This document shows positions 12,553 to 60,765 of a DNA stretch of 64,000 nt, in pieces. Origin of the DNA: Gemmatimonadales bacterium (GTDB lineage: Bacteria > Gemmatimonadota > Gemmatimonadetes > Gemmatimonadales > Gemmatimonadaceae); the NCBI GenBank assembly GCA_038250435.1, contig JBBSCJ010000017.1, positions 3,450-67,449 on the forward strand. Direction: 5' to 3'. The notes beneath the pieces are model-generated. The model had not been told where the DNA came from, made no database searches, and saw only the letters and a program-made list of their open reading frames with translations. Position numbers and translations under genes: made by a program. Numbering within the stretch: the first letter of the stretch is position 1; the number at the start of each line of letters is the position of its first letter.

Positions 12553-12987
12553 TTAGTGCAGGGAATCCTGCAGGATGCCGAGCGCCGTCCCGTAGCGGGC
12601 AACGGGTGGGGTGACGGTCGCCTTCGCGCGCCGGCGCGGTGCCGGTAGCGTCGCGTGCAATGCCGATAGCACGGGCTCGGAGAACCCTTCGCGCCGCAGA
12701 TCCTCGATGGTGCAGTCGGACTCCACCAGCACGTTCTCGAGCAAGGCGATCAACCGGGATTCGGTATCTGGGAGCGAAAAGATCGCGGGATCGTCGCTCG
12801 GAAGCAGTTCGCGGCCGAATGAATTGCGGCGCGTGGCATGTGCCAGAGTCGCCAGTGCCAGTGCGTGCTCGAGCCCACCGGCATAGACTCCGAAATGGTG
12901 ACGCAGTGGAAGTTGCATGGCGGAAGCCCGGCTGAGGTGAACGGTGATCTGCCCGCGTTCCATTGCATCTTCGATGCCGTCGCCCAT
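12553..12987 (-). CDS. hypothetical protein
   Basis: 144-aa ORF on the same strand, between the upstream small ORF and the WYL pair. No motif recognised. Confidence 0.4.
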   Translation of the reverse strand: MGDGIEDAMERGQITVHLSRASAMQLPLRHHFGVYAGGLEHALALATLAHATRRNSFGRELLPSDDPAIFSLPDTESRLIALLENVLVESDCTIEDLRREGFSEPVLSALHATLPAPRRRAKATVTPPVARYGTALGILQDSLH

Positions 12988-13005
12988 CCGTTTCCCGGCG
13001 CGCGT

Positions 13006-13494
13006 TTACGTGAGTCCCAGCTCACCTGCCACGGCGCGCACGCCGGCCAGCTGAAGTCCGTCTTCCTCGAACACGATAACGCCCACCAGCGCCTGTGCGA
13101 CGTCGTCCGGCAACCGGTCCGCGCGAAAGACCTGAATGACCGGCCCGTCGGCCATCGCGTCGCCGAGTCGCGGCTGCGACCAGGCGGGATCGAGGGTAGG
13201 TTCGCTGTCAAAGCCGTGGGCAAGCACCTCTGGCAGCCGTGTCGCCGCCACGCCGCGATAGCGTACCGCCGGCGCGCCGGGCCCCATGCTTCGCTCGAAG
13301 AGCACCTGCCACGCCATTGGCCGCGCCCCCTGCACACGGGTGCCGCTTGCCACCACAATTCGTGGGTCGCGTGCAATGAGGTGCATCCGGGTGACCGCAT
13401 CCTGGAGATCGTCCAGAATGCGCGATTCCCGCGTCGATGGGGGCACACCCGCAGGGGCGGACCCGGACCCTGAATTTCCTGAAGCGTCGGCCAT
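13006..13494 (-). CDS. hypothetical protein
   Basis: ORF with ATG at 13494 preceded by GGAAAG. 18-nt gap to the next ORF. No motif recognised. The longer track ORF (to 13683) would overlap the divergent MFS gene. Confidence 0.4.
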   Translation of the reverse strand: MADASGNSGSGSAPAGVPPSTRESRILDDLQDAVTRMHLIARDPRIVVASGTRVQGARPMAWQVLFERSMGPGAPAVRYRGVAATRLPEVLAHGFDSEPTLDPAWSQPRLGDAMADGPVIQVFRADRLPDDVAQALVGVIVFEEDGLQLAGVRAVAGELGLT

Positions 13495-13542
13495 CCTGCA
13501 ATCTTTCCCCATGCCCGTCCTGCAGCCACCCTCCGCGCTCAC

Positions 13543-14742
13543 GTGATCACGCTCTTTCTTGTGGTATTTCTGGACCTGATCGGCTTCGGGATGATCATCC
13601 CGGTGTTTCCGTTCTATGCCGAAAAAGTGGGCGTGGCGCCGTCGTCGGTGATCTTCTTTCTGGGGTTGTACTCGCTCGGGCAATTGGTGGGCGCACCGTT
13701 GTGGGGTAGCCTCTCCGACCGCATCGGACGACGCCCGGTACTGCTGATGACACTGCTCGCGAACGCGGGCGCCTCGTTCATGCTCGCCTTCAGCACCACC
13801 GGAACATTGCTGGCGGTCTCGCGCATCGTGGCGGGGCTCGCCGCCGGCAACATCTCCACGGCGTACGCGTACAGCACCGACATCACCGACGACCGGACGC
13901 GGCCGCGCGCCCTCGGCCTGCTCGGCTCCGCGTTCGGCCTCGGTTTCGTGCTTGGACCGGCACTCGGCGGACTGCTCGCCGGCACGAACGAAGACGACGG
14001 CTCGGCGTTCGCGCGCGTCGCCTACGGTGCCGCCGTGCTATCGCTCGTGGCATTCGTGCTGACGTATTTCCGGCTCCCCGAATCGCTCCCCCCCGACCAG
14101 CGCGCTTCGCGAGCCACGAAGCGCGCGGGGCTGGGCACGTACTTCACGCGCCCGGTCCTTTGCGGCCTGCTGCTGGCCACGATCATCGTGATCGCGGCCG
14201 TGGCGTTGCTGCAAAGCACGCTCGCCCTGTGGGCCGCCGAACGACTGGGGGTCGGTCCGCGCACGCTGGGGTGGATCTACGGATTTGTAGGAGTGATTTC
14301 CGTCGCCGTGCAGGTGGGAATCATCGGAAAGCTCACCGCGCGCTTCGGAGCGCAACGCCTCACCAGCGCCGGTGCCGTGTGTATCGGTGTCGGCATGGCA
14401 TTCATTCCACCCACCAACTCGATTCCGTGGCTGCTCGCGGCCCTCGCCGTTTTCGGCATCGGCACGGCGCTGTTCAATCCGAGCATGAGTGGACTGGTAG
14501 CGGGCGTAGCCGCTCCGCATGAGCGCGGCGCGGTACTCGGCGCGTATCAGAGTGCGGCGTCGCTGGGCCGTGTGCTCGGCCCTTTCGCGGCCAGCGGCAT
14601 CGCGCGCATGACGTCGCTGTCGTGGCCCTTCGTGGCCGGCGCGGTGGTGTCCGTGATTGGCGTGGTGCTCATTCACACGCGTCCGCGTGGGCAGGCGCCG
14701 GCCGGTGACGCTCTCGAGAAAAACCCCACCTCCGACGCGTAG
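13543..14742 (+). CDS. MFS transporter (drug/H+ antiporter, Tet-like)
   Basis: About 12 hydrophobic segments. MFS motif A-like GSLSDRIGRRPVLL. Confidence 0.85.
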   Translation: MITLFLVVFLDLIGFGMIIPVFPFYAEKVGVAPSSVIFFLGLYSLGQLVGAPLWGSLSDRIGRRPVLLMTLLANAGASFMLAFSTTGTLLAVSRIVAGLAAGNISTAYAYSTDITDDRTRPRALGLLGSAFGLGFVLGPALGGLLAGTNEDDGSAFARVAYGAAVLSLVAFVLTYFRLPESLPPDQRASRATKRAGLGTYFTRPVLCGLLLATIIVIAAVALLQSTLALWAAERLGVGPRTLGWIYGFVGVISVAVQVGIIGKLTARFGAQRLTSAGAVCIGVGMAFIPPTNSIPWLLAALAVFGIGTALFNPSMSGLVAGVAAPHERGAVLGAYQSAASLGRVLGPFAASGIARMTSLSWPFVAGAVVSVIGVVLIHTRPRGQAPAGDALEKNPTSDA

Positions 14743-14747
14743 CCGCA

Positions 14748-14788
14748 GCGCGAGCGATGCGAACGACGCCCGCCCGCATCGCTCGCGC
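14748..14788 (+). terminator. perfect 14-bp stem / 13-nt loop hairpin 6 nt after the MFS stop
   Basis: GCGCGAGCGATGCG (14748-14761) pairs with CGCATCGCTCGCGC (14775-14788). Lies between convergent genes. No obvious U-tract. Confidence 0.5.
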
Positions 14789-14946
14789 ACGGGCAGGCAC
14801 GCGTGGCGACGCCTGCGCGACGAAAGCCCGAAGCGCTGAAAAGGTTGGCGGCTGGGAAGTGGCATCCCCCGCACTTCCGCGCCCGCTATGTGGGCGGCCG
14901 AACACTCGCTCGCCGTGAGCAGAACCCGAAGCGGCCGTCCAGCCGG

Positions 14947-16392
14947 CTAACGCTCAAGGCCGCCCACCACTCGCTTCACCAGCGCACCGCGCGGCAACGA
15001 CGTTTCCGCGCTCATGGCGTTGATGACGTACACCTGCTCGGCGGGGATGCTGCTGGGATACCGCTGCACAAACTGCTGTCCCGACATCGCGGCGGGGAGT
15101 GTGACCGTTTCCACTCGCGCCGGTTGCACAGTGAGGGCGGCCGCTTCGGTGAGCGGACGGAACGAGCGAATGCTCCGCTCCACTTCCGCGCTCCGCTGCG
15201 CTGCCACCTGTGGTACCATGATTCCCACCAACAGGTACGTGGTGTTCCGATACGACAGCGATGCCGCCAGTCCACTCAGCGTGCCCTGTTCCGCCTGCGC
15301 CTGGAAGGTGGCGATCACTGCCGGGATGCCGTTGATGCTGGTCTGGCCGCTCTGCCCCGCCGTGATCCCTTGCTGGCCCAGAAACCCCTGGAGCGCCTGC
15401 GACGCCGTTCCCTGACCAGGAAGCAGCTGCAGCTGTGCACCGTTGTCCGGACTCGCCGCGACGACCGCGTCGGGCATGTTCTGCGCCTTCCACCCGATTG
15501 GAAAGTCAAACTGAAAGCGCAAGTCGGGATGCAGGAAGCTCGTACCGCGAAAGAACCCCAGACGCGGATTCTCCCCGAATACCAAGCCGTCGAGCATCCG
15601 CAGATAACTTTCACGGTTTACGCGCGTTTCGGCGAGCGCTCCGCGCGGCAGCTGCGCCACGCGCTGCTCTGCGAGCTGCACACGGTTGCCCGGATCAGGG
15701 TGTGTGCTCTGCCACTCCGGAAGGCGCCCGGCGTCGCCGGCGAGACGACCGAGCGTCTGAAAGACCTTGGGAGCCTCCCGCACGTCGTAGCCCTGCGCGA
15801 GCGAATACTGAAAGCCCAGCGCGTCTGCCTGCAGCTCGTCTTCGCGCCCGAACTTGAGGAAGAGGAGCGAGGCGCCGGCGCCAAGCACGTCGCCGTAGCG
15901 CGCGACCGTGGGCGAAAAGATGCTCGCGCCCACAAGCCCGATCTGCGTCACCTGCTGCTTGCTGATCGCCGCCACCGTGTGCTTCGCCGTCACATGGCCG
16001 ATCTCGTGGCCGATGACTTCCGCGAGTTCCGCTTCGCTGTTCAGATGCGTCATCAATCCGCGCGTCACGAAAATGAAGCCGCCGGGATACGCAAACGCAT
16101 TGACAGCCGCGTCGTCGAGCGCGTGAAACTCCCACGGCAACCCTGGACGCTCCGACTTGGCCGCCATTTGCGCGCCGATGCGACGCACGAGCGCCTGCGC
16201 TTCGGGATTCTGCAGCGCACCTACGCGCTGCAGATCGCCCTGCGACGCCTGGCGTCCCATCTGGATCTCCTGCGCTTCGGAGACGAGCGACAGCTCGCGT
16301 CGCCCCGTCACCGGGTTGGTGGCGCATGCGACCATCGACGCCAGCATGCCGCCAAGCAGCGCGCCGCGTCGCATTCCCTGTATACCTGTCAT
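14947..16392 (-). CDS. M48-family zinc metalloprotease lipoprotein
   Basis: HEXXH as IGHEIGHVTAKH. Lipobox-like MLASMVAC. ATG 16392 preceded by AGGAAA. Confidence 0.85.
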   Translation of the reverse strand: MTGIQGMRRGALLGGMLASMVACATNPVTGRRELSLVSEAQEIQMGRQASQGDLQRVGALQNPEAQALVRRIGAQMAAKSERPGLPWEFHALDDAAVNAFAYPGGFIFVTRGLMTHLNSEAELAEVIGHEIGHVTAKHTVAAISKQQVTQIGLVGASIFSPTVARYGDVLGAGASLLFLKFGREDELQADALGFQYSLAQGYDVREAPKVFQTLGRLAGDAGRLPEWQSTHPDPGNRVQLAEQRVAQLPRGALAETRVNRESYLRMLDGLVFGENPRLGFFRGTSFLHPDLRFQFDFPIGWKAQNMPDAVVAASPDNGAQLQLLPGQGTASQALQGFLGQQGITAGQSGQTSINGIPAVIATFQAQAEQGTLSGLAASLSYRNTTYLLVGIMVPQVAAQRSAEVERSIRSFRPLTEAAALTVQPARVETVTLPAAMSGQQFVQRYPSSIPAEQVYVINAMSAETSLPRGALVKRVVGGLER

Positions 16393-49925: not shown

Positions 49926-50477
49926 TTGGCACTGGACATTCGACATGCGCTCTCCGCGAGCGCGCCGGAATCGCTATCCGAGCTCCGGGAGATGTTAGGG
50001 AGCCTCGAAGCACAGTTGGTCACGCTGTACGAGGAGAAGGAAGAGTGGAGCGCCAGCTCCGCTGCACCGGACGAGACACTCACGGCGCTGTATGAAGACA
50101 AGCAGCGGCTGAGCGCCCGTACCATCGCTGATCTCCGGGCCAGCGTGGACAGCTTTTCGGCGCAACTCGCCGAATTTTATGAGGGACGCGAGCACGAGGG
50201 CGCGGCAGTCGGCGCTGGCAGTTCCGCTGAGCTGCTCGTATCGCTCCAGTCGTTCGAGGCGCAGCTGCACGCGCTTTATGACGAGCGTTCGCTTCAGCCC
50301 TTCGGACATGGTGAGGCGGTGGAAATGGTGCATAGCCTTGAAGCGCAGCTGGTCGCGCTGCTCGATGAACGCAACGAGCTCGCCGAGCAACTCGCCCGCG
50401 CCGCGCAGGACGTGAACACCGCCAAACGGCGTGCCCGTGAGCTCGTGAACGCCGTGGTCGATCAAACATTCGCCTGA
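49926..50477 (+). CDS. coiled-coil protein with internal S-[LF]-[ES]-AQL-x-x-[LF]-Y-[DE]-E repeats, first gene of the pyp operon
   Basis: TTG 49926 preceded by GAGG. Repeats LGSLEAQLVTLYEEKEEW, LTALYEDKQRL, VDSFSAQLAEFYEGREHE, LQSFEAQLHALYDERSL, VHSLEAQLVALLDERNEL. Confidence 0.55.
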   Translation: MALDIRHALSASAPESLSELREMLGSLEAQLVTLYEEKEEWSASSAAPDETLTALYEDKQRLSARTIADLRASVDSFSAQLAEFYEGREHEGAAVGAGSSAELLVSLQSFEAQLHALYDERSLQPFGHGEAVEMVHSLEAQLVALLDERNELAEQLARAAQDVNTAKRRARELVNAVVDQTFA

Positions 50478-50527
50478 GCGCTATCGCGCTCGACTACCCA
50501 ACACTCGTGCCAGTTCTGGAGGTTTCT

Positions 50528-50902
50528 GTGTCGTTTGTTCCTTCGCAGTTCATGTCGCAAATCCCGTCGGTTGACCGCAGCCATGCTGATGATCAGTCTT
50601 TTGGTGTCGTGCAGGTTGACGACGCCGGTGTGATCAAGCTGTACAACCGGTTCGAGTCCGAGATGGCCGGCGTGGCCGTGAGTGCAGCCGAAGGCCGGAA
50701 CTTCTTCACGCACGTCGCGCCGTGTACCAACAATCGGCTCATGTTCGGCAAGTTCAAGGATGGCGTGGCCAAGGGTGAGCTCGACACCGAGTTCAACTAC
50801 ACGTTCACCTACAAGATGAAGCCGACGAACGTGCAGATCCGTTTGTATCGCCACGCCCCGTCCGCGACCAACTGGGTGCTTGTCGGCCTGCGCGCCGCGT
50901 AA
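50528..50902 (+). CDS. pyp: photoactive yellow protein (PYP, PAS-fold 4-hydroxycinnamyl photoreceptor)
   Basis: 124-aa product from GTG 50528, 5 nt after GGAGG (50518-50522). Colinear with Halorhodospira PYP as I recall it: [24 protein letters not shown] vs [71 protein letters not shown] vs [47 protein letters not shown]. Chromophore Cys codon TGT at 50723-50725. Confidence 0.9.
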   Translation: [124 protein letters not shown]

Positions 50903-50971: not shown

Positions 50972-51445
50972 ATGGCTCCCGGACAACCCATGCGCTCGCT
51001 CGCCCAACAACTGTTAGAGGTCGCCGACCCGTCGATCGTCGTCCCGACCTGCCGCAACATCGCTGAGTCTGTCGACCTGAACGCCCGGGAGAAGGAAGAC
51101 CTGGCGGCGGAAGCAGAAAGCCTGTCGGCGCAGATCACGTCACTCGCGTCGTCGCTGCAGCATCCCGACGACGAACCGGACCTGTACCGTAGCCTCGCCG
51201 CCTTGTGGCTGGAATTGCGCTTCGCCTGGCAACGGCACAACATGGTGGCGAACTACGACACCATTGGTACCGGCTCGTGCGCGCCGATCGTTCTTGCGCG
51301 CGCCTCGACGGCTTCGTTCTTTCTCCAGCGCATCGAGGCGTTGCTCGCCCGCGAGCACCTCGATAAACTCGGCGACACGGCCGTCGAACTGCTCGACAGC
51401 GTGCGAACGGACGTGGATAGCGGCAATCTTGGCGTGGCCGCGTAA
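50972..51445 (+). CDS. hypothetical protein sharing a novel domain with the N-terminus of the CheA-like protein
   Basis: 157 aa. LAALWLELRFAWQRHNMVANYDTIGTGSCAPIVLARASTASFFLQRIEALL aligns by eye with LPSIWLELRFEWMRYNMQMQYQTVLRGTADPLLMARGASLSSILDAVEFHL in the 52555..54033 product. Confidence 0.55.
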   Translation: MAPGQPMRSLAQQLLEVADPSIVVPTCRNIAESVDLNAREKEDLAAEAESLSAQITSLASSLQHPDDEPDLYRSLAALWLELRFAWQRHNMVANYDTIGTGSCAPIVLARASTASFFLQRIEALLAREHLDKLGDTAVELLDSVRTDVDSGNLGVAA

Positions 51446-51446
51446 C

Positions 51447-52547
51447 GTGTTCACGACGCTTCTGAAACGCCTGCTTCGCGCAGCCACCGCGCGCTTACCA
51501 TGGCGTTCGCGACCGCCCCTCCTCAGCGAGTCGGCAGCGCCGTCCACCGTCGCCGTGGTCTCGATCGAGATCGCGGCACCGGCACCCGCTCCAACAGCAG
51601 CCGCGGCGCCAGTAGCGGAAGCGCGGACGGTCGTGTCGCCCGCCGAACCGACGGTGGCGTACGCGCCATCCGAGGCGTGGACGGAGCGGCTGGCTGCCGC
51701 CTACGCGTTGCAGAGCGATCATGCCACTGAATCGACAAACCCTGACGCGACGGCGCTGTTGCAGCTGCTCGCGGAAGGCCCTGACACGGTGATTCGCCAG
51801 ATGCCGGCGGCGGCTCGTGAGGCGCTCGCCATCTGCGACGACAATAGCCTGTCGCGTCGCGCACTTGCGCAGCGCCTGGAACGCGATCCTGCGCTGATGC
51901 AGGGGCTGTTGCGGACCGCCAACAGCGCCGCGATCGGCGGTGGACGCGCGCCCGCTGTGGGACTCGACGCCGTACTCGATCGCATCGGCGTGGCGGGGGC
52001 GCGCGGAGTCGTGCTCGCCAACTGTGTCGATGGACTGCTGAGTCATCCGGGCGGCGAGTTCAACCGCCTCGCCAGCGAGACGTGGGCGCACATGGTGCGC
52101 AGTGCGCCGATTGCCCGCGCGGCGGCACCGGCGTTTGCGGCCGACGCCGATGAAGCGTTTACCGTCGCCTTGCTCCACGACGTAGGGAAACTTGTGGTGT
52201 TCGATCGCCTCTCCGTTTTGCGCGCGAAACGTCGACGCGCCGTGACCCTCGCGCCCGACTTCGTGCATCAGCTGCTCCAACTGCTCCATGAGCCGCTCGG
52301 CGCCCTCGCCGCGCTCCAATGGGGTATGGGTGACCGGGCCGCCACCGCGATCGGCACCCACCATCGGGTCGCGGCCGCGCGGGGACGTCATCCACTCGCC
52401 GAAGCCATCTTCTTTGCCGAACGCGCGGACCATGCCGAACGACGTCAGGAACCTTTCGATGTTGATCTCGCGTGGACCGAAGGCAAGCTGACCGGCTCCG
52501 TGAATCGCGCCGTTGCGGCGCTGCAATCGCTTCCAACCGCCGCGTGA
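51447..52547 (+). CDS. HDOD domain protein
   Basis: GTG 51447 one nt after the upstream stop (start uncertain). Ala/Pro-rich N-terminal region. HDOD signatures RDPALMQGLLRTANSAAIG and ALLHDVGKLVVFD. Confidence 0.7.
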   Translation: MFTTLLKRLLRAATARLPWRSRPPLLSESAAPSTVAVVSIEIAAPAPAPTAAAAPVAEARTVVSPAEPTVAYAPSEAWTERLAAAYALQSDHATESTNPDATALLQLLAEGPDTVIRQMPAAAREALAICDDNSLSRRALAQRLERDPALMQGLLRTANSAAIGGGRAPAVGLDAVLDRIGVAGARGVVLANCVDGLLSHPGGEFNRLASETWAHMVRSAPIARAAAPAFAADADEAFTVALLHDVGKLVVFDRLSVLRAKRRRAVTLAPDFVHQLLQLLHEPLGALAALQWGMGDRAATAIGTHHRVAAARGRHPLAEAIFFAERADHAERRQEPFDVDLAWTEGKLTGSVNRAVAALQSLPTAA

Positions 52548-52554
52548 TCGTCAC

Positions 52555-54033
52555 ATGAGCGACCGTCTGTTCGACCTGTTGACGCTTCTGGAGAGCACAC
52601 AAGTCCGGGAACGTATCCGCCAGATGATCGATGAGCTCGGGAGCATCGGCGACGACGATGCCCGAGCGCTGGAGGCGGCGATGAACGCGCGCCTCTGCGG
52701 TATTGCGGAGTCGCTCCGTGATGTCTGCATCGACGACGACACCACGGAAGCACTCGCCATGCTCCCCTCGATCTGGCTCGAGCTGCGCTTCGAGTGGATG
52801 CGCTACAACATGCAGATGCAGTACCAGACCGTCCTGCGTGGCACAGCCGACCCGTTGCTCATGGCCCGGGGCGCGTCGCTGTCTTCCATCCTTGACGCCG
52901 TCGAATTCCATCTGGATGCGGAGGCGGCGTTCATTGTCAACAAGATCGCGGCTGACCCGTCGGGGGCTGCACGCGGCGCTATCGACAAGACTGACCGACT
53001 CTTCAGCATCCTGTTCACCGCCAGCGCCGGCGGCCGCGCTGCCGTGGAAGCGCTGCTCCTCGTTCAACATCAGATCGCCAAGCATACGGATTCAATTCCC
53101 GTGCGCAACGAGATGCGAAAAGCGATCAGCACGGTCATGGAACGCATCGGCGGCGCGCTGCTCGTGACGGTCGATGACTTCATCAGTGCGCTCCAGGGTA
53201 CCCTCCTGCGCAAACTGGGCGACGCGATGGTCCGGGTGGTGCTGTATGACGCGAGTCCGAATCCCTCCCTCTGCGTGCCGAGCGCTGTCGCCAACGGCCT
53301 GCTGTCGGCCGCCGGCGACTGGATGACTGCCCTGCGCGACAGCTCCATGTCGCTCGGAGCGCGTGAACGTCTCGCAGCCGGACGGCCATCGTACGTCACC
53401 CTGACGGCGACGTTGAACCAGATCGGCGATCGCGTCGAGCTCACGCTTGCCGACGACGCTGATGGCGCCGTGTTGTACACGCCCGACTGGAACGCGTGGC
53501 CTATCAGCGATTTCACCCTGCATCTGCAGCAGGAAGCGAACGTCGGCAGCGCGCTCGTCATCAGCTGCAATGTCACCAGCATCCGGGAATACGTCATGCT
53601 GCGCGTCGGTGCCGGGGACGATGACGCGTTCATCGGCATCCCGATGCACATGATCAATCACATCGAGAGACGTGACCAGAGCGCGCTCGCGCTGCAAGGG
53701 ATGCGACTCATCGAGCGAGTGACCGGCGGAACCGTACCGCTCATCGATCTCGGCGACGCGCTCTTCGGCGCCGCGATCCCCACCATCGACGGGACATATG
53801 TGCACATACGCCTGGAAGACACAGACGTATCGCCGGGTGGCATCATCGCGGTGCGGGTACGAGGGGTGGAAGGTATCTGCCGCGGCAGCGTGCGGTCGGC
53901 CCATCAGATGCTTTCTGCAAGCCCGCTCCGCGGCTTCCTGCAGACGGACAGCCGTATCGTAGCCGTCCTGGATTTTGACCGACTCCTGGGGCACCGCGTG
54001 CGCACCCATGGGGAAGCCTTGCGGGCGGCCTGA
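52555..54033 (+). CDS. CheA-like protein: novel N-domain + degenerate HATPase (P4-like) + CheW-like (P5) domain, no Hpt
   Basis: ERLAAGRPSYVTLTATLNQIGDRVELTLADDADG resembles CheA EKRLAAGK..G.L.LSA.H.GG...IEV.DDG.G. The C-terminal FIGIPMHMINHIER...VPLIDLGDALFG...IIAVRVRGVEGI...GFLQTDSRIVAVLDFDRLLG matches the CheW/P5 pattern. N-box, G1/G2 boxes and the phosphorylatable His domain were not found. Confidence 0.55.
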   Translation: MSDRLFDLLTLLESTQVRERIRQMIDELGSIGDDDARALEAAMNARLCGIAESLRDVCIDDDTTEALAMLPSIWLELRFEWMRYNMQMQYQTVLRGTADPLLMARGASLSSILDAVEFHLDAEAAFIVNKIAADPSGAARGAIDKTDRLFSILFTASAGGRAAVEALLLVQHQIAKHTDSIPVRNEMRKAISTVMERIGGALLVTVDDFISALQGTLLRKLGDAMVRVVLYDASPNPSLCVPSAVANGLLSAAGDWMTALRDSSMSLGARERLAAGRPSYVTLTATLNQIGDRVELTLADDADGAVLYTPDWNAWPISDFTLHLQQEANVGSALVISCNVTSIREYVMLRVGAGDDDAFIGIPMHMINHIERRDQSALALQGMRLIERVTGGTVPLIDLGDALFGAAIPTIDGTYVHIRLEDTDVSPGGIIAVRVRGVEGICRGSVRSAHQMLSASPLRGFLQTDSRIVAVLDFDRLLGHRVRTHGEALRAA

Positions 54034-54035
54034 CC

Positions 54036-55673
54036 ATGTCCGAACGAACTCCTGCCTCGATCGACGTCGGCGCGGTCGTGACAACGCGGCACGTCTTCGA
54101 TATCGCACACGGGTACCGCACGGCGGCGCTCGGGAGTGCGGCGCGGGCGCGCATGCAGGCCTCACACACGACATTGGCGCGGATGGTTGCCGAGCGTCGA
54201 CGGATTTATGGCGTGACCACGGGTTACGGTCCCCTTGCCTCGCATCCAATCTCGCCCGAGCACGCCGCGACGCTGCAGCGGAACCTCGTGTACCACCTCT
54301 GCAGCGGTGTCGGCAAGCCGCTGTCGCGTCTCCACACCCGCGCGATGATGGTCGCGCGGGCCGCGAGTCTCGCTCGCGGTTATTCCGGCGTGAGTGAGAC
54401 GCTGTTCCGCACGCTGCTCGACTGCCTGGAACGCGACCTGGTACCCGTGGTCCCCGAGATGGGGACGGTGGGTGCCAGCGGTGATCTCACGCCACTCGCC
54501 CACGTTGCGCTGGCCATGCTCGGCGAGGGCGAAATGTGGTATCGCGGCGAACGCTTGCCGGCGGCGCAAGCGCTGCGCGCGGCTGGCCTGGCACCAATCA
54601 CGCTCGGCCACAAGGAGGGAATCGCCCTTGTGAATGGCACCTCGTGCATGACAGGCATCGCCGCCGTCAATGCCGAGCGTGCGCGCCGGGCCGCTGACCT
54701 CGCGCTCCGCCTGTCGGTGCTCTTTGCGGAGTGCCTGAACGGACGTCTCGAGGCCTGGGACCCCCGCTTCGCGGTCGCCCGCCCGCATGCCGGGCAGGTG
54801 GTCGCCCACGCCGCGCTCGCGCGGTGGAGTGCCGGTAGCTCACGCCTCCGCGCCACCATACAGCCCCCTGAGCGACTCGACGAGTCCGAGTCCCGCGAGG
54901 GCTGGTTGCCCGAAGGCGAGCTGCCGCAGGATCCGTACACGATCCGCTGCGTCCCGCAGCTCATCGGCGCTGTGCTGGACGTCCTCGCGTTCCACGACAA
55001 CATCGTTGCAACCGAGCTGCAGAGCGCCACCGACAATCCGCTCGTTTTCGCCGACGACGAGGCGATCCTGCACGGTGGCAATTTCTATGGACAGCATGTC
55101 GCGTTTGCCTCGGACACGCTGTTGCTTGGCGTAGCGAAGCTGGCCATTCATGCCGAACGATGCGTCGCACGCATCACCGATCGCGCGCAGAACCAGGGAC
55201 TCCCCGCGTTTCTGCACGGCGGACCCGATGGCGTGAATTCCGGATTCATGGGCGCACAGGTCACCGCCAGCGCCCTCATCGCAGAGCTGCGCACCCGCGC
55301 GGTGCCGGCGTCGATCCAGTCCGTTCCCACGAACGCCAATAATCAGGACGTCGTCACCATGGGCACGATCGCCGCGCGCAAAACAGCCGACGTGCTGGAC
55401 CTCGTTTATCTGGTGCTCAGCATCCAAGCCTTGGCGCTTGCCCAGGCGGCCGAAATGCGGGGGGGTTCGGAGCTGTCCGGCTTCGCGCCCGCCAGCTGTG
55501 CCATGGTACGATGGATTCGCGAGACAGCCTCCCCGCTCGTCGCCGACCGGCCGTTGGCCCCGGACATCGAATGCCTGGCCGCGCGACTCGAAATGGTCGA
55601 CTGGGGAAGCGAACACTGCGAGGATGCCGCGCAGACGCCGAACGACGCGGACGAACTCGCACTCGTGTTTTGA
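54036..55673 (+). CDS. tal: aromatic amino acid ammonia-lyase, predicted tyrosine ammonia-lyase (p-coumarate synthesis)
   Basis: MIO-forming GASGDLTPLAH (ASG codons 54474-54482). His-Leu (54294-54299) in NLVYHLCSGVG, at what I recall as the Tyr-selectivity switch. Same operon as pyp. No hutU/hutI nearby. Confidence 0.8.
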   Translation: MSERTPASIDVGAVVTTRHVFDIAHGYRTAALGSAARARMQASHTTLARMVAERRRIYGVTTGYGPLASHPISPEHAATLQRNLVYHLCSGVGKPLSRLHTRAMMVARAASLARGYSGVSETLFRTLLDCLERDLVPVVPEMGTVGASGDLTPLAHVALAMLGEGEMWYRGERLPAAQALRAAGLAPITLGHKEGIALVNGTSCMTGIAAVNAERARRAADLALRLSVLFAECLNGRLEAWDPRFAVARPHAGQVVAHAALARWSAGSSRLRATIQPPERLDESESREGWLPEGELPQDPYTIRCVPQLIGAVLDVLAFHDNIVATELQSATDNPLVFADDEAILHGGNFYGQHVAFASDTLLLGVAKLAIHAERCVARITDRAQNQGLPAFLHGGPDGVNSGFMGAQVTASALIAELRTRAVPASIQSVPTNANNQDVVTMGTIAARKTADVLDLVYLVLSIQALALAQAAEMRGGSELSGFAPASCAMVRWIRETASPLVADRPLAPDIECLAARLEMVDWGSEHCEDAAQTPNDADELALVF

Positions 55674-55781: not shown

Positions 55782-56945
55782 TCAAAAAATTACCGCAGTG
55801 CCGTTTCCTTGTTCGTGTGGCGTGGTATGCGTCGCGCGCCTGACAAAACGGTAGCAGCCGTCGTCGATCGCTTCGACGATATCGCCGGTGCGTTGCCACG
55901 CCGCACTGTCGCTTCGCTGTAGACCATCGCGCGTCCAGCGCCCGACGCAGGCATTCGCCCCGCGAAAGGCGAGCACGCCGTCGGAGTCGATGCGCACCTC
56001 ACACCCAATCGCACGGCCGAGTAATCGCGCGGACCACACGCCGGCCCCGCCCAGCGCGATACCCGCCGACGCTTCAGTCTGTCCGTACCCGGCACGCAAG
56101 CGTGTCGATTGCAGCTGCGTCGCGAGATTTGCGGAGATTGGTGCGCCTCCGACCACCCCGCCGGTCAACCGGCGAAGCAAGGAGGCTCCCCGTCCTTGGG
56201 CGAACAGACGCGCGGCAAGCGCCGGTCGCAGCTCCACGTGGGTTATCGGATGGGCGTCCGCCAGATCGAGCAGCGACGGGATATCCTGGCCGCCATCGGG
56301 ATCCCGTACGATTTCGTGCGCATGGAGCAGCGCCATCAGCAACCCTGTCACCAAGCCGGAGGCCTGATGCCAAGGCAGCACGCTCAGCATGCAGCCGCCG
56401 GTCGGTGCGACGAACGGCGCATGGCTGTCGAGTACGGCGAGCACGCTCGCGTCGGAGAGCGCAACCCATGTCGGTTCCCCCCTGGTACCCGATGTCCGCA
56501 GCAACACACACACGTCGGGAGTCACGGCACCATCGGCGATTCGTAGCGACGGCAAGGACCGGTCCGGCCAGCCCGCGTCACCTGGCTCGAAGCAATACGA
56601 CGCAGGCGCCACTCCTGCAGCAAATGAATCACGGACAATCAGTCGCGCATCCAGCATTGCCAGGAGCGCCTCCAGCCGATCTCCTTCGACATCGCGCGGC
56701 GCGACCGGTGCCAACGTCACGCCGTCCCACAGCGACGCGATCAGCAGTTGCACGAAGGCCGCACCGGGCGGCAGCGCGCAGACCACACGATCGCCGCGCC
56801 TGATGCCGGCCTCGCGCAGCGCGCGCACCCACTGGCGCGAGCCCGCCCACAGCGATGCCGCCGTCCAGATGTGATCGGGAAGCACCAGCAAGGGCGTGGC
56901 CTGTCCCGCAAAGCGCGCGTACAGCCGATCGCGCCATCCGTTCAT
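55782..56945 (-). CDS. pcl: 4-coumarate-CoA ligase-like adenylating enzyme (pCL), short form
   Basis: AMP-binding motifs [13 protein letters not shown] (A3), GYGQTEAS (A5), WQRTGDIV (A8). The ORF stops about 35 aa after TGD, so the usual C-terminal subdomain appears absent. Confidence 0.7.
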   Translation of the reverse strand: MNGWRDRLYARFAGQATPLLVLPDHIWTAASLWAGSRQWVRALREAGIRRGDRVVCALPPGAAFVQLLIASLWDGVTLAPVAPRDVEGDRLEALLAMLDARLIVRDSFAAGVAPASYCFEPGDAGWPDRSLPSLRIADGAVTPDVCVLLRTSGTRGEPTWVALSDASVLAVLDSHAPFVAPTGGCMLSVLPWHQASGLVTGLLMALLHAHEIVRDPDGGQDIPSLLDLADAHPITHVELRPALAARLFAQGRGASLLRRLTGGVVGGAPISANLATQLQSTRLRAGYGQTEASAGIALGGAGVWSARLLGRAIGCEVRIDSDGVLAFRGANACVGRWTRDGLQRSDSAAWQRTGDIVEAIDDGCYRFVRRATHTTPHEQGNGTAVIF

Positions 56946-56957
56946 GCGCTACGCTCC

Positions 56958-58145
56958 CTACGCCGCTGGCAGCCGTCTCACCGCCAACAACGTCACGTCA
57001 TCTGCTGGTGGCGCGCCCGCTGCATGCCCGTGAACCGCGTCGAGCACTCGGTCGAGCAGGACATCGGCGGAACCGCTCGGCGACGCAAGCAGTGCATCGG
57101 TCGCGTCATCGCCGAACAGCAACCCGTTTGGCGCACGGGACTCGGTGATCCCATCAGTAATTACCAGCAGCGTTTCGCCGGGTGCCAGCACGATCGTGCC
57201 CACCGCAAACGGAATCTCCGGCAGCATACCCACGGCCGGTCCGGTTGGCGGCAGCATCGTGCGCACGCTCCCGTTGGCGCGCACCACGCGCGGCGGCTCG
57301 TGCCCGCCGTTGACGTATGCGATCGTTCCGGTAGACGGATCGAGCGCTCCCACGAACAGCGTTGCGAACATATTTGCCCGCCCATGCGTGTTGGCGATGT
57401 AATCGTTCGTAACGGTGACCGCGTACAGCACGCGGGACTCCAACATGTCCACGGTGTGCGACCCGACCTGCGAGGCAGATACGGCGCGAATGAGCGAGCG
57501 AAACAGCGCCATGAACAGCGCGGCACCGACGCCCTTGTCGCACACATCACCGAGCACGAGAGCCACCGCGCCATCGGGCAGGCGGAACGCATCATAGAAA
57601 TCACCACCAACTTCCCGCGCCGGTTCGAAGCGCGCGGCGAGTTCATAGCCCGTCACTGCGGGCAGGCTCTCCGGCAGAAAATCGCGCTGGATGCGGGCGC
57701 CGACCTCGAGATCTTTCTGCATGCGTTGCGCGCGCGCCTGCTCGCGGTCACGCAGTCGCTTTTTCTCGAGCGACGCACCTACGCGGGCGCGCAGCAGCAC
57801 CGGATCGAACGGCTTCGGGAGATAGTCTTCCGCCCCCAGTTCGATGCACTTCACGACCGTCTCGAGCTCGGTGTTGGCCGAGATCATGATTACCGGAATG
57901 TGCTGCGTACGGTCATTCGCCTTGAGCGCAGTCAACGCCCCCAGGCCATCGAGCACGGGCATCATCACGTCGAGCATGATCAGATCCCACGACGGATCGC
58001 TCGTGAGATCGAGCGCTTCCTGTCCGTCACTGGCGGTCGTCACCACATGCCCCATCTTCTGCAGACGACGCGACAGCAGATCGCGGTTCACCTCGACATC
58101 ATCGACCACCATGATCCGTGCCGGGGCCGACCGGTCTTCAGTCAT
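56958..58145 (-). CDS. response regulator receiver + PP2C/SpoIIE serine phosphatase (RsbU/HsbR-type)
   Basis: REC domain IMVVDDVEVNRDLL...DLIMLDVMMPVLDG...KPF. PP2C region REVGGDFYDAF...VLGDVCDKGVGAALFM...GGHEPP...LLVITDGITE. ATG 58145 gives an ATGA overlap with the upstream patatin gene. Confidence 0.85.
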   Translation of the reverse strand: MTEDRSAPARIMVVDDVEVNRDLLSRRLQKMGHVVTTASDGQEALDLTSDPSWDLIMLDVMMPVLDGLGALTALKANDRTQHIPVIMISANTELETVVKCIELGAEDYLPKPFDPVLLRARVGASLEKKRLRDREQARAQRMQKDLEVGARIQRDFLPESLPAVTGYELAARFEPAREVGGDFYDAFRLPDGAVALVLGDVCDKGVGAALFMALFRSLIRAVSASQVGSHTVDMLESRVLYAVTVTNDYIANTHGRANMFATLFVGALDPSTGTIAYVNGGHEPPRVVRANGSVRTMLPPTGPAVGMLPEIPFAVGTIVLAPGETLLVITDGITESRAPNGLLFGDDATDALLASPSGSADVLLDRVLDAVHGHAAGAPPADDVTLLAVRRLPAA

Positions 58146-59074
58146 CGAACTGGCCACAGGCCTGGTGTCGGAAGCGGGCCAATCATCGATGCCTGCAGCA
58201 GGCGTCGCAAGTACGGCATCTGTTCTTCGGCGGCGCGCTCGCCTTGTTCGATGAGATACGGAATGTGCTGCGTCTCGGTGAGACCGATGTGGCGATCGAG
58301 CAAAGGCATGATCGGCAGCACTTCGGCGTGGTGCGCGACGCTGTAAAAGGCGAAGGTCGCGCGAAGCAGGTGATTGGTCACGATCGTGGACGTCCGCCCC
58401 AACGCATTCACCAGCGAGCGGACCTCGGCGTTCATCTGACTTTCAAAGCCCATCGCGAGAATGATGTCGCAGCCTTCGCGGATTGCGACATCGATCGGCA
58501 GCGGGTTTGACGCGCCGCCGTCCACCAGCATGCGACCATCGACTTCCCAGGCGCGCAGCAGCATCGGGATCGCAATGCTGGCCCGCGTGGCGTCGGTGAT
58601 GCGTCCCGAATCGAGCACAACTTTGTCGCCCGTGCGAAAATCGGTGGCCGACTGCAGCAGCGGGATTCTGGTGTCGGCAAAGGTGCGCTCGCCGAACAGC
58701 GATTCGAGCACCTTCCACACCTGACGATCGTCCACCATCCCCACCCGCTCGTGATAGCCCATGAACATCGGGGCGATCGCGCGCAAGAGGGATCGGTAAT
58801 GCAGCTTGTTGAAAAGGTCTTTCCAAAGCACCAGCGTTTGCCGCTCGATTTCGGTCGCGCTGTCGCCGAGGACGTAGAGCGCGCTGTAGATCGCGCCGCC
58901 ACTGCACCCCACCACGACGTCTACGGGGATGTTTTCGCGCTCGAGCACCTTGAGCAGTCCCACCGCAGCCGTGCACTTGATGCCGCCTGACCCGATCACC
59001 AAACCGATGCGCGCGCGGCGTTCGCCGAAGTCGCCGAGCGAACGTTCACCGGTAGCGCCGAGTCGGAGGGACAT
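58142..59074 (-). CDS. patatin-like phospholipase (copy 1)
   Basis: Oxyanion GSGGIKC, nucleophile elbow GCSGG, catalytic Asp motif VDGGASNPLP. Confidence 0.85.
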   Translation of the reverse strand: MSLRLGATGERSLGDFGERRARIGLVIGSGGIKCTAAVGLLKVLERENIPVDVVVGCSGGAIYSALYVLGDSATEIERQTLVLWKDLFNKLHYRSLLRAIAPMFMGYHERVGMVDDRQVWKVLESLFGERTFADTRIPLLQSATDFRTGDKVVLDSGRITDATRASIAIPMLLRAWEVDGRMLVDGGASNPLPIDVAIREGCDIILAMGFESQMNAEVRSLVNALGRTSTIVTNHLLRATFAFYSVAHHAEVLPIMPLLDRHIGLTETQHIPYLIEQGERAAEEQMPYLRRLLQASMIGPLPTPGLWPVR

Positions 59075-59084
59075 CAGCGCGTGT

Positions 59085-59939
59085 TCATTCAGGCACCGCG
59101 GCCAGGAGCCGGCGCAGGTACGGAAGCTGCTCCCGCATGGCGGCGTCTCCCTCGTCGATCAGCAACGGAATCTTTCCGGTATCGAACAGCCGGATACGCT
59201 GCGAGAACTGCGGGATCACGGCGATCACTTCGCTGTGGTGAGCAAGGCCGTGAAACGCGAACGACGCCTTGAGCAGGTTGTTCGTCATGATGCTGCTGAG
59301 TTGAAACGCGAAGCGTCCCCCCGACGTCACCCGGTCCTGATACGGGCTTTCGAAACCCATCGCGATAATGACGTGTGCCCCTTCGCGGATCGCCACTCCT
59401 ACCGGCAGCGGATCGGAGAGGAAGCCGTCGATGCACAGTCGGCCATTCACTTCCCACGGCGCGAACGCAAACGGAATCGCGATGCTGGCCCGCACGGCAT
59501 CAGCGAGGCGCCCTTCGCTGATCGTGACCTGCTCGCCGGTGCGGAAATCGGTGGCGGTGATGAACAGTGGGATCTTGCAGTCGGCAAAGGTGAGATCACC
59601 GAAGGCCGTGGTCAGACGCTCCCACACCACGTGATCCTTCTTGAGGCCGAACCGCTCGGTGAAGCCGAGCAGCCTGGGAAACAGCATGCGCATCAGCGCG
59701 GCGCGATCGGGCTGCGCGGTCACGTCGCGGGTCCACAACGTGGTGCTCATCGCCGCCGCTTCCTCGGCGTTCTTCCCGAGGGCGATCGCGGCAGCGTAGA
59801 TCGATCCGCCACTGCAGCCGACCACCAGGTCGATGTTGATCGACTCCCGCGCGAGGCATCGCTGCAGTCCGATGGCGGCGGCGCACTTCACGCCGCCGGA
59901 GCCGATCACCAGCGCAATGCCGCTCCCGTCACGTCTCAC
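59085..59939 (-). CDS. patatin-like phospholipase (copy 2)
   Basis: GTG 59939 overlaps the STAS stop (GTGA). GSGGVKC, GCSGG, IDGFLSDPLP. The track ORF extension to 60299 is antisense-frame overlap with the STAS gene. Confidence 0.8.
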   Translation of the reverse strand: MRRDGSGIALVIGSGGVKCAAAIGLQRCLARESINIDLVVGCSGGSIYAAAIALGKNAEEAAAMSTTLWTRDVTAQPDRAALMRMLFPRLLGFTERFGLKKDHVVWERLTTAFGDLTFADCKIPLFITATDFRTGEQVTISEGRLADAVRASIAIPFAFAPWEVNGRLCIDGFLSDPLPVGVAIREGAHVIIAMGFESPYQDRVTSGGRFAFQLSSIMTNNLLKASFAFHGLAHHSEVIAVIPQFSQRIRLFDTGKIPLLIDEGDAAMREQLPYLRRLLAAVPE

Positions 59940-60289
59940 CTGGCGCCGCCCACGTTGGCGAAGCTGGCAACGGCGCCGTCGACATCCGCAAAGCATTTGA
60001 GAATGCTGGTGAAGCCGCTCAACTCCAACACCTGGCGCACATTCGGACGGATGTCGGAGATCCGCAGATCGCCGCCGCGTTGACGCGCCTCCTTGAGCGT
60101 GGACAACAACACCCGCAGCCCGGCGCTGCTGGTATACTCGACGCCGCCGAAATGCGCGACGATGCGCGTCCGTCCGGCGGTCACTTCGTCGAGCAAAGCC
60201 GTGACGAGCGTGTCGGCGGTAAGGGTATCGATGCTGCCGGTCACGGCCACGATCGTGACGTGTTCCTGCTGCGTGATCGATATCTGCAT
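59936..60289 (-). CDS. STAS-domain anti-sigma-factor antagonist (RsbV/SpoIIAA-like)
   Basis: 117 aa. VTIVAVTGSIDTLTADTL...VEYTSSAGLRVLL (phosphorylatable Ser context)...VLELSGFTSIL. Confidence 0.85.
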   Translation of the reverse strand: MQISITQQEHVTIVAVTGSIDTLTADTLVTALLDEVTAGRTRIVAHFGGVEYTSSAGLRVLLSTLKEARQRGGDLRISDIRPNVRQVLELSGFTSILKCFADVDGAVASFANVGGAR

Positions 60290-60291
60290 GA

Positions 60292-60765
60292 CTAGGCACG
60301 TCCTGAAGGGGAAGCGCTGGCGGCGCCGCGCTTGATAAGCGTTAATCGGTTCAACATGCCCTGCGCCGTTGACACGGAGTCGTACTGCAGCTCGTCCACC
60401 ATCTGCCTTACGAGAAACCAGCCGAGTCCGCCGATCGGGCGGTCGATCCAGTCGGACACGAGGTCGGGCGTCGGGGCGTTGGCGGGATCGAACGGCTCCC
60501 CCCGGTCCTCCACGACAATGATGGCATCATCTCCGCTCCGCCGCACGGAAACGCGCGTCGGTCCCGGGGCGAGGCCGTCGGTCCCGTGTTCGACGAGGTT
60601 GGCGCAGACTTCATCCACGGACAGTACGAGCGCATCGGTCGCGCCGGCGCAGCCCAGTTCGGCGAGCGTCACCCGGAGGAATTGCCGGATGTCGCCGAGT
60701 CGATCGAGGGTGAAGGGAGACAGGGCGAGGATGCGCTCGGCGTCGGACGCCAGGGGTTCAGCCAT
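60292..60765 (-). CDS. anti-sigma regulatory factor-type Ser/Thr kinase (RsbW/SpoIIAB-like HATPase)
   Basis: ATG 60765. N-box-like EVCANLVEHG, VEDRGEPFD, GGLGWFLV. Confidence 0.75.
   Translation of the reverse strand: MAEPLASDAERILALSPFTLDRLGDIRQFLRVTLAELGCAGATDALVLSVDEVCANLVEHGTDGLAPGPTRVSVRRSGDDAIIVVEDRGEPFDPANAPTPDLVSDWIDRPIGGLGWFLVRQMVDELQYDSVSTAQGMLNRLTLIKRGAASASPSGRA

Follow-up and report, generated by a model that had tools for sequence, protein, structure and literature searches.

Analysis of a 64,000-nucleotide stretch of DNA from a Gemmatimonadales bacterium (assembly GCA_038250435.1, contig JBBSCJ010000017.1, positions 3,450 to 67,449; hereafter the window) drew attention to a gene at 52555–54033 within a cassette for photoactive yellow protein (PYP). 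We are highly confident that its 492-aa product is a CheA-derived pseudokinase, with a P3-P4*-P5 core in which P4 is degenerate (P4*) and with a helical N-terminal domain (hereafter the N-domain) of no known relatives. It is this unannotated N-domain, rather than the CheW-like tail, that constitutes the key new element, and the CheA-like protein and its N-domain paralogues are likely to be functional partners of PYPs of clade B. The architecture of the protein, the loss of its catalytic elements, its conserved linkage to pyp and the repeated occurrence of the N-domain beside, or fused to, CheA-type proteins are computational results of this work.

The open reading frame extends from an ATG at 52555 to the stop codon at 54033 on the + strand, and its codon-position GC content (GC3 0.79 versus GC2 0.46) is typical of coding sequence in a 65% GC genome. 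Public data hold one identical protein and 33 full-length homologues of 488–507 aa (50–81% identity), the starts of which align with the ATG at 52555. The homologue WP_373064361.1 is labelled 'chemotaxis protein CheW' in RefSeq (Gemmatimonas sp.); a single-domain CheW has about 150–170 aa, whereas the present protein has 492, of which only the last 140 form the CheW-like part. The gene lies 7 nt after the stop codon (52547) of a gene for an HDOD protein and 2 nt before the ATG (54036) of that for an aromatic amino-acid (tyrosine) ammonia-lyase (TAL), spacings that had been part of the original prediction and were reproduced from the coordinates; at other loci, homologues overlap the TAL gene by 4 nt. 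Intergenic gaps of 1–69 nt are the sole basis for reading the cassette as an operon, to which a promoter and terminator consensus scan of 49.5–57.1 kb, yielding nothing above shuffled expectation, adds nothing.

The CheA-like body and its ATP site

The protein was modelled with AlphaFold2 on a 30-sequence alignment (mean pLDDT 81), and ranks 1–8 of a Foldseek search of the PDB with this model were all CheA P3P4P5, P4P5 or core signalling units (6s1k, 8c5v, 3ja6, 1b3q, 2ch4 and 3ur1; E 5.5e-17 to 1.5e-12, about 390 aligned columns). Lower ranks comprised P3P4 (4xiv), isolated P4, short chains of core-unit and P4-P5/CheW/receptor structures, and ordinary histidine kinases. On the strength of this modelled fold and of two bridging relatives (P0085 and P0103, below), the body is a predicted CheA P3-P4-P5 core. 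It begins with a P3-like helical hairpin (residues 135–201; 52957–53157, + strand) of putative dimerisation function, which the model resolves into helices 135–174 and 180–201 and which is covered by the Foldseek alignments to P3P4P5 (about 390 columns) and P3P4 (about 260), Pfam giving no H-kinase_dim match in the protein itself. The architecture had been described as 'P4-P5 only', a description that does not hold, given this hairpin and the 140-aa N-terminal domain that precedes it.

The C-terminal P5/CheW-like domain (residues 344–480; 53584–53994, + strand), correctly recognised at the outset, is matched by PF01584 over residues 348–480 (28.5 bits versus a gathering cutoff of 23.5, E 1.3e-6), while NCBIfam returned no match for the protein. 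In Foldseek, it matched 4jpb_A (TMt 0.80, rmsd 2.4), a chain of 131 residues from the ternary complex of CheA P4-P5, CheW and receptor, as well as the short chains 6s1k_C and 8c5v_E from the E. coli core unit (TMt 0.68–0.73).

The degenerate, HATPase_c-like P4 region (residues 203–340; 53161–53574, + strand) was assigned from Foldseek, hhalign and motif spacing. Neither Pfam nor NCBIfam gave a HATPase_c match in the protein, and phmmer against the PDB gave nothing relevant; Pfam was thus positive for CheW and negative for HATPase_c, and the structural comparison was positive for the CheA P3P4P5 fold. Against PDB sequences, the family profile matched only CheA P4 (1i58 and 6mi6), through the segment E271–G304 (E about 0.8, non-significant alone), which retains the CheA-specific motif running from the N-box to G1, ERxAxGxP..T(L/I).(A/L)..........(L/V)...DD(A/G).G, and an hhalign comparison of the family profile with one canonical CheA gave E 0.08. 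Intermediate relatives bridge this distance: P0085 matches the family profile with 97.5% hhalign probability and has HATPase_c at 32.2 bits (threshold 26.4) as well as CheW above threshold, and P0103 combines the same N-domain with H-kinase_dim (32 bits, cutoff 23) and CheW (87 bits). It is therefore the fold search and these relatives that carry the P4 assignment, the direct sequence searches being non-significant, and the resemblance to the CheA ATP-binding domain noticed in the original prediction is borne out in this way.

What is missing from the protein is the equipment of a kinase. We found no PF01627 match for the histidine phosphotransfer (Hpt, P1) domain; the N-domain has no invariant His, and its model gave no significant PDB match, Hpt structures included. 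The predicted lack of an Hpt domain is thus upheld (Pfam and NCBIfam blank, N-domain fold unlike Hpt), in contrast to the canonical L087 CheA and two further CheAs (P0124 and P0145), in which Hpt is present. Within P4, there is no GxGxG (G2 box), nor is there one in any of the N-terminally fused relatives, and the distance from G1 to G3 is 30 residues, versus 79 in the L087 CheA (DDGKG, GRGVGMD and GQGT). About 49 residues, comprising the ATP lid, the F box and the G2 box, have been deleted, and this is visible as a block gap in the hhalign alignment to P0085. The earlier statement that neither an intact N-box nor G1/G2 boxes could be found is confirmed for G2 but needs correction in that N247, the Asn of the N-box, is kept, as is a vestige of G1 (DDADG, residues 300–304, with the first G1 glycine replaced by Ala). 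We call the protein a pseudokinase because it lacks Hpt and has lost ATP lid, F box and G2 box.

The N-domain and its linkage to pyp

The N-domain occupies residues 1–134 (52555–52956, + strand), with the core LPxIWLELRFEWMRYNxQMQYQ, and scores 180 bits with the N-domain hidden Markov model (HMM) over residues 1–148. The same HMM gives 145 bits on a standalone 157-aa protein encoded at 50972–51445 (+ strand), which aligns to residues 27–121 of the CheA-like protein (BLASTP 8e-14, 32% identity over 100 aa) and is indeed its paralogue, as had been proposed. An AlphaFold2 model of this protein (pLDDT 92, pTM 0.82) comprises six helices and returned no PDB fold match with E < 0.35, and no Pfam or NCBIfam family matches it. 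A degenerate Hpt (P1) domain was considered for the N-domain and found no support, as no Hpt structure is among the PDB matches listed for this model.

We define the N-domain family as helical domains of about 130–150 aa with the core W-x-E-x-[RK]-x-x-W-x-x-x-N-x-x-x-[NQ]-[YF]; the shared core reads W-L-E-L-R-F-E-W-x-R-x-N-x-x-x-N-Y-Q, and W81, N85 and E117 are invariant or nearly so across 37 diverse members. Conservation of the CheA-like protein peaks at residues 61–180, that is, in the N-domain core and the first P3-like helix. When 1.8 billion representative proteins were searched exhaustively with a profile, 144 matched at E <= 0.001, and about 90 of these are standalone proteins of 130–165 aa that match the N-domain only; a word-index profile search with the N-domain alignment A3 gave four proteins. 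The metagenome scan described below was based on the narrower alignment A4 and not on the divergent A3. In some cassettes, the separate small N-domain genes are replaced by genes for triple tandem N-domain proteins of about 470 aa (HMM 270–285 bits), as at L126:966-2351, L133:7932-9368, L134:1412-2848 and L137:7041-8456 and in protein P0063.

In the window, the cassette starts with a gene for a 183-aa coiled-coil protein (49926–50477, + strand) that has about five repeats of S[LF]EAQLxxLY[ED]E[RK] and no Pfam family at threshold. The 124-aa PYP follows (50528–50902, + strand; TIGR02373, 110 bits), the start of which is the GTG at 50528 rather than position 50507 of the listed reading frame, being preceded by GGAGG and agreeing with homologues that begin MSFVP. 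An alignment of the 124-aa neighbours shows that Y42, E46 and C69 are conserved, indicating true PYPs, and the window PYP is 89% identical to WP_026849937.1 of Gemmatimonas phototrophica, which has been assigned to PYP clade B together with the Leptospira PYPs (PMC9664959, Xing and co-workers). After the standalone N-domain gene comes that for the 366-aa HDOD/HD-domain protein (51447–52547, + strand; PF08668 83 bits, PF01966 27 bits), with a GTG start set by homologue alignment 1 nt past the preceding stop. Downstream of the CheA-like gene are TAL, source of the p-coumarate chromophore (54036–55673, + strand; PF00221, 522 bits), and, convergent with it, an AMP-binding enzyme that is probably the p-coumarate:CoA ligase (pCL; 55782–56945, - strand; PF00501, 93 bits).

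This arrangement recurs at other loci, which usually starts with the coiled-coil protein and PYP, continues with one to three N-domain proteins and, in some cases, HDOD, and ends with the N-domain/CheA-like fusion, TAL and pCL. Gene order at L001, L003 and L004 is as in the window. At L002, the homologue (50% identity) is inverted and divergent from pyp, abutting a coiled-coil/PYP/N-domain/N-domain/HDOD block with TAL and pCL near, and at L005 and L006 (52% identity) it is the next gene after pyp, with TAL behind it. The survey thus supports the expectation that the gene is conserved next to pyp in relatives, down to 50% identity and in rearranged order. To extend this, 47 metagenome loci were fetched solely by the N-domain motif WLEL[RK][FM][EA]W and then scanned with custom HMMs. 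PYP was present in 40 of the 47, and the other seven are cut by a contig end (a boundary just upstream of the N-domain gene, or the contig end), so that the N-domain stands beside pyp in 40 of 40 testable loci. The N-domain/P3-P5 fusion was found in 24 of the 47, with PYP in 21 of those 24. By the same scan, pCL is kept across cassettes, and the coiled-coil protein is directly upstream of PYP in most loci. Our statements on adjacency to pyp cover these 47 loci together with L087, L088 and L089, in each of which an N-domain gene lies within a few kb of pyp, as distinct from the roughly 90 other standalone representatives.

The association reaches beyond the Gemmatimonadota-type cassettes. Two standalone N-domain proteins, 25–26% identical to the N-domain of the CheA-like protein, are encoded in contigs of 46% and 50% GC, the PYPs of which are 46–59% identical to the window PYP and are adjoined by pCL and TAL. 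At L087, the N-domain gene comes first in an operon that also encodes a 211-aa protein and a canonical CheA (Hpt HTIKGS, N, G1, G2 and P5) and that is divergent from genes for PYP, the coiled-coil protein, pCL and TAL. At L089, the order is N-domain, coiled-coil, PYP, pCL and TAL, followed by a convergent gene about 4 kb from the N-domain gene (12749-16108, - strand) for a 1119-aa CheA-like protein that has H-kinase_dim and CheW, neither a HATPase_c match nor a G2 box, so that more than one lineage may pair PYP with a degenerate CheA core. In addition, the N-domain is fused C-terminally to the canonical CheAs P0124 and P0145 (29–32% identical to the L087 CheA) and lies upstream of H-kinase_dim and CheW in P0168. 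The N-domain is thus tied to CheA-type proteins in trans, C-terminally and N-terminally, a fusion and fission pattern that usually signals functional partnership. With the conserved linkage and the CheA ties, the sequence data support, strengthen and make more specific the suggestion of the original prediction that a pseudokinase or scaffold hard-wired to pyp is a candidate PYP partner.

Two observations concern smaller proteins at these loci. The 211-aa protein of L087 (8417-9052, + strand) has no family match, and its gene overlaps those of the N-domain protein and CheA by a few bases. Shorter proteins with the S[LF]EAQLxxLY[ED]E[RK] repeat flank PYP at L087:6987-7505 (- strand), L089:8437-8802 (+ strand) and L005:7277-7504 (+ strand). 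The coiled-coil protein beside pyp, found in Gemmatimonadota-type cassettes and in two distant lower-GC lineages, is probably a further component of the system.

Past pCL, the window encodes a REC-SpoIIE (PP2C) response regulator (56958-58157, - strand) and a STAS anti-sigma-antagonist-type protein (59936-60289, - strand), and two adjoining genes for patatin-like phospholipases (58142-59074 and 59085-60299, both - strand). The second patatin reading frame (404 aa) is over-extended, the domain beginning at residue 130 and the first 120 or so codons overlapping the STAS gene in another frame. The REC-SpoIIE, STAS and patatin genes were considered as members of the cassette and rejected, as they are not conserved beside it at other loci. 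Upstream of the cassette, 28373-49735 (- strand) holds a run of genes for large predicted surface or outer-membrane proteins (PKD, fn3, Big_2, RCC1-repeat and CarboxypepD_reg/Plug TonB-type).

A proposed route from PYP to a chemosensory complex, and its rivals

We lean towards a reading in which the CheA-like protein is a pseudokinase adaptor dedicated to clade-B PYP, with light-activated PYP binding the N-domain module and the dead CheA core relaying the event to CheA, CheW or methyl-accepting chemoreceptors (MCPs). Upon activation by blue light, PYP would engage the N-domain module in the 157-aa paralogue, the fused copy or both, a contact that the coiled-coil protein possibly joins. The fused P3-P4*-P5 body would then pass the event to a chemosensory-type signalling complex, docking through P5 and/or using P3 to pair with a genuine CheA, CheW or receptor array, and kinase output would be altered in the absence of any kinase activity of the protein itself. 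We infer that PYP binds the N-domain directly, that the protein docks in an array and that motility is the output. More tentatively, the N-domain may be the direct receiver of the PYP signalling state, providing clade-B PYPs with a soluble photoreceptor-to-CheA input that bypasses transmembrane chemoreceptors; the module would then occur in three forms, namely in trans, C-terminal to active CheAs and N-terminal to CheA-derived pseudokinases.

Several observations weigh against the adaptor reading. The CheW score of the protein is barely above threshold, and four close homologues are without a precomputed CheW match, and the array-docking surfaces may therefore be degenerate. The segment DDADGTVxYxPxWxxWPIRD (53452-53514, residues 300–320) is strongly conserved within the gutted ATP site, which suggests that the dead P4 pocket has gained another conserved role. 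Among the reading frames of the 64-kb window, Pfam identified no MCP, CheA, CheW, CheY or flagellar gene, and thus no sign of the presumed array partner in this genome. The HDOD protein, present in most cassettes, is encoded between pyp and the CheA-like gene and could be the true output. Finally, an HMM scan of reference genomes found the N-domain, the coiled-coil protein and the fusion in none of 80 Halorhodospira-type pyp loci; these loci were ranked by likeness to the Halorhodospira PYP, are without Gemmatimonadota, Leptospira and R. capsulatus, and serve as a negative control. The adaptor can therefore not serve PYPs universally.

The main rival, which we regard as rather unlikely, places the output outside the chemotaxis array: the protein would be a PYP-linked scaffold with P5 and P3 as generic interaction modules only, signalling to the HDOD/HD protein (for instance, into nucleotide second-messenger or motor control) or to another effector such as the REC-PP2C/STAS partner-switching genes. 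In its favour are the HDOD gene immediately upstream, the lack of che genes just noted, the position of the REC-SpoIIE and STAS genes 3–6 kb downstream, the listing of HDOD, SpoIIE and MCP genes beside pyp of Thiorhodospira sibirica (PMC9664959 Data Set S3), and an HDOD-EAL gene with MotAB a few kb from the L005 cassette. However, at least eight cassettes encode the fusion but no HDOD protein (L117, L120, L123, L126, L130, L132, L134 and L137), at L005 and L006 no HDOD gene lies between pyp and the fusion gene, and the REC-PP2C, STAS and patatin genes do not accompany the cassette elsewhere. Moreover, the N-domain is fused to or co-operonic with intact, Hpt-bearing CheAs, which points to a CheA-type phosphorelay as the ancestral output.

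Residual kinase activity, chromophore maturation and accidental linkage are disfavoured. That the protein has stayed active as an unorthodox kinase, or acts as an ATP-binding regulator, and phosphorylates a separate Hpt protein in trans is improbable: Asn247 and the G1 Asp are kept within a strongly conserved motif, and the split CheA of R. sphaeroides, CheA4/CheA3, offers a precedent (PMC6829392), but G2 box, F box and ATP lid are gone, G1 and G3 have drawn together, HATPase_c is not matched, the cassette includes no Hpt-only gene and the N-terminal fusion relatives are likewise devoid of GxGxG. Even less credible is an auxiliary role in the maturation of PYP, whether in making the chromophore or in attaching it, an idea prompted by the proximity to TAL and pCL, including the 2-nt spacing and, in homologues, the 4-nt overlap with TAL. 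Holo-PYP has been produced heterologously with TAL and pCL alone. The CheA P3-P4-P5 fold and the fusion of N-domain relatives to signalling kinases also argue against a maturation role, as do the 80 Halorhodospira-type loci, which have pCL (75 of 80) and TAL (47 of 80) and never the N-domain/fusion family. Least probable of all, in our estimation, is that adjacency to pyp is a functionally meaningless accident of gene order in one lineage of Gemmatimonadota. Most full-length close homologues do apparently come from one lineage, Gemmatimonas sp. being the sole source name, but the linkage has outlasted inversion and rearrangement (L002 and L005), and the N-domain also adjoins pyp in the 46–50% GC contigs with their distant PYPs.

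Significance and relation to known systems

The signalling partner of single-domain PYPs in vivo is still termed unidentified, up to 2026 (PMC9664959; PMC13250908). The assertion of the original prediction that no PYP transducer had been found in any organism is partly outdated, given the R. capsulatus PYP-binding protein PBP, the binding of CheW by the PYP-phytochrome Ppr and the MCPs of Leptospira, which are compared below. Among the matches listed for PYP and CheW, judged by titles and the starts of abstracts, no publication appears to deal with the N-domain/fusion family, and a full-text search for PYP combined with HDOD found none. The orthologue of the CheA-like protein in Gemmatimonas phototrophica is entered in PMC9664959 Data Set S3 only as 'None', an entry indicating that it and the N-domain protein were present yet unrecognised.

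As the N-domain proteins and the CheA-like fusion accompany clade-B pyp wherever the context is checkable, they are concrete and testable candidates for the link between PYP and behaviour. The fusion and operon ties of the N-domain with CheA fit the role in phototaxis proposed for PYP (PMC13250908) and the adjacency of Leptospira PYPs to MCPs (PMC9664959). The cassette also occurs in Gemmatimonas phototrophica (GCF_000695095.2), making the system experimentally tractable. Photoreceptors feeding a chemosensory-type pathway and CheA-family pseudokinases are both of a known kind; what is added to the chemosensory repertoire is a helical domain with no match in Pfam, NCBIfam or the PDB and a new CheA-derived pseudokinase architecture. 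If the N-domain is indeed the receiver, a conserved pathway downstream of a single-domain PYP would have been identified for the first time, and Gemmatimonas phototrophica belongs to the lineage concerned. A light-switchable PYP/N-domain pair could serve as an optogenetic tool.

With CheA (T. maritima CheA-289, PDB 1B3Q; E. coli core unit, 6S1K), the protein shares the order of a P3-like hairpin, the P4 alpha/beta sandwich and P5, but it is without P1 (Hpt), P2, ATP lid, F box and G2 box, has an unrelated 140-aa helical N-terminus, and is encoded in a pyp/TAL cassette instead of a che operon. The split CheA of R. sphaeroides, in which CheA4 comprises P3-P4-P5 and CheA3 comprises P1 and P5 (PMC6829392), is a precedent for a CheA homologue without P1 and P2 that works with another CheA-type protein in an array. 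CheA4 is, by the same account, the kinase half of that pair, whereas the ATP site of the present protein is gutted and its cassette encodes no P1 partner. ParP of Vibrio (PMC5706961) and CheV similarly use a CheW-like domain to insert an extra function into chemosensory core units; their extras differ, however, being a domain that binds ParC for polar tethering in ParP and a receiver domain in CheV, whereas the CheW-like domain here is joined to a dead kinase core and to the helical domain associated with PYP. DivL (PDB 4Q20), itself among the Foldseek matches, likewise exploits a histidine-kinase fold as a scaffold or allosteric relay without phosphotransfer of its own, but it is of the DHp-CA type, acts in a cell-cycle pathway and lacks the CheW-like domain.

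Among PYP partners, the closest parallel in gene context is PBP (RCAP_rcc01067, 142 aa), the product of a gene adjacent to that of Rc-PYP, which Rc-PYP binds in vitro and which is the sole reported binding partner of a single-domain PYP (bioRxiv 10.1101/2021.06.01.446672). Like the N-domain proteins, it is small, encoded next to pyp and a proposed downstream partner, but its predicted fold combines alpha and beta elements, in contrast to the all-alpha N-domain. The possibility that the N-domain is PBP was examined with a 142-aa protein whose gene immediately precedes pyp in R. sphaeroides and Roseivivax and whose orthology to R. capsulatus PBP is presumed from equal length and position; it scored 0.4 bits (E 0.51) with the N-domain HMM, and we therefore take PBP and the N-domain to be unrelated. 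In Roseivivax halodurans (L139, JALZ01000003.1, 8542-16064), the PBP-like gene, PYP, two small genes and pCL are followed by genes for a 934-aa multi-PAS soluble chemoreceptor and a 485-aa multi-CheW protein and by gas-vesicle genes, an independent link between pyp and array components.

Two further systems tie PYP-family photoreceptors to arrays as proposed here: the clade-B PYPs of Leptospira adjoin sensor-less MCPs (PMC9664959), and the PYP-phytochrome Ppr binds CheW through its kinase domain (PMC2993699). The window PYP belongs to the same clade B as those of Leptospira, but its neighbour, and candidate partner, is a CheA-like pseudokinase with an N-domain in place of an MCP.

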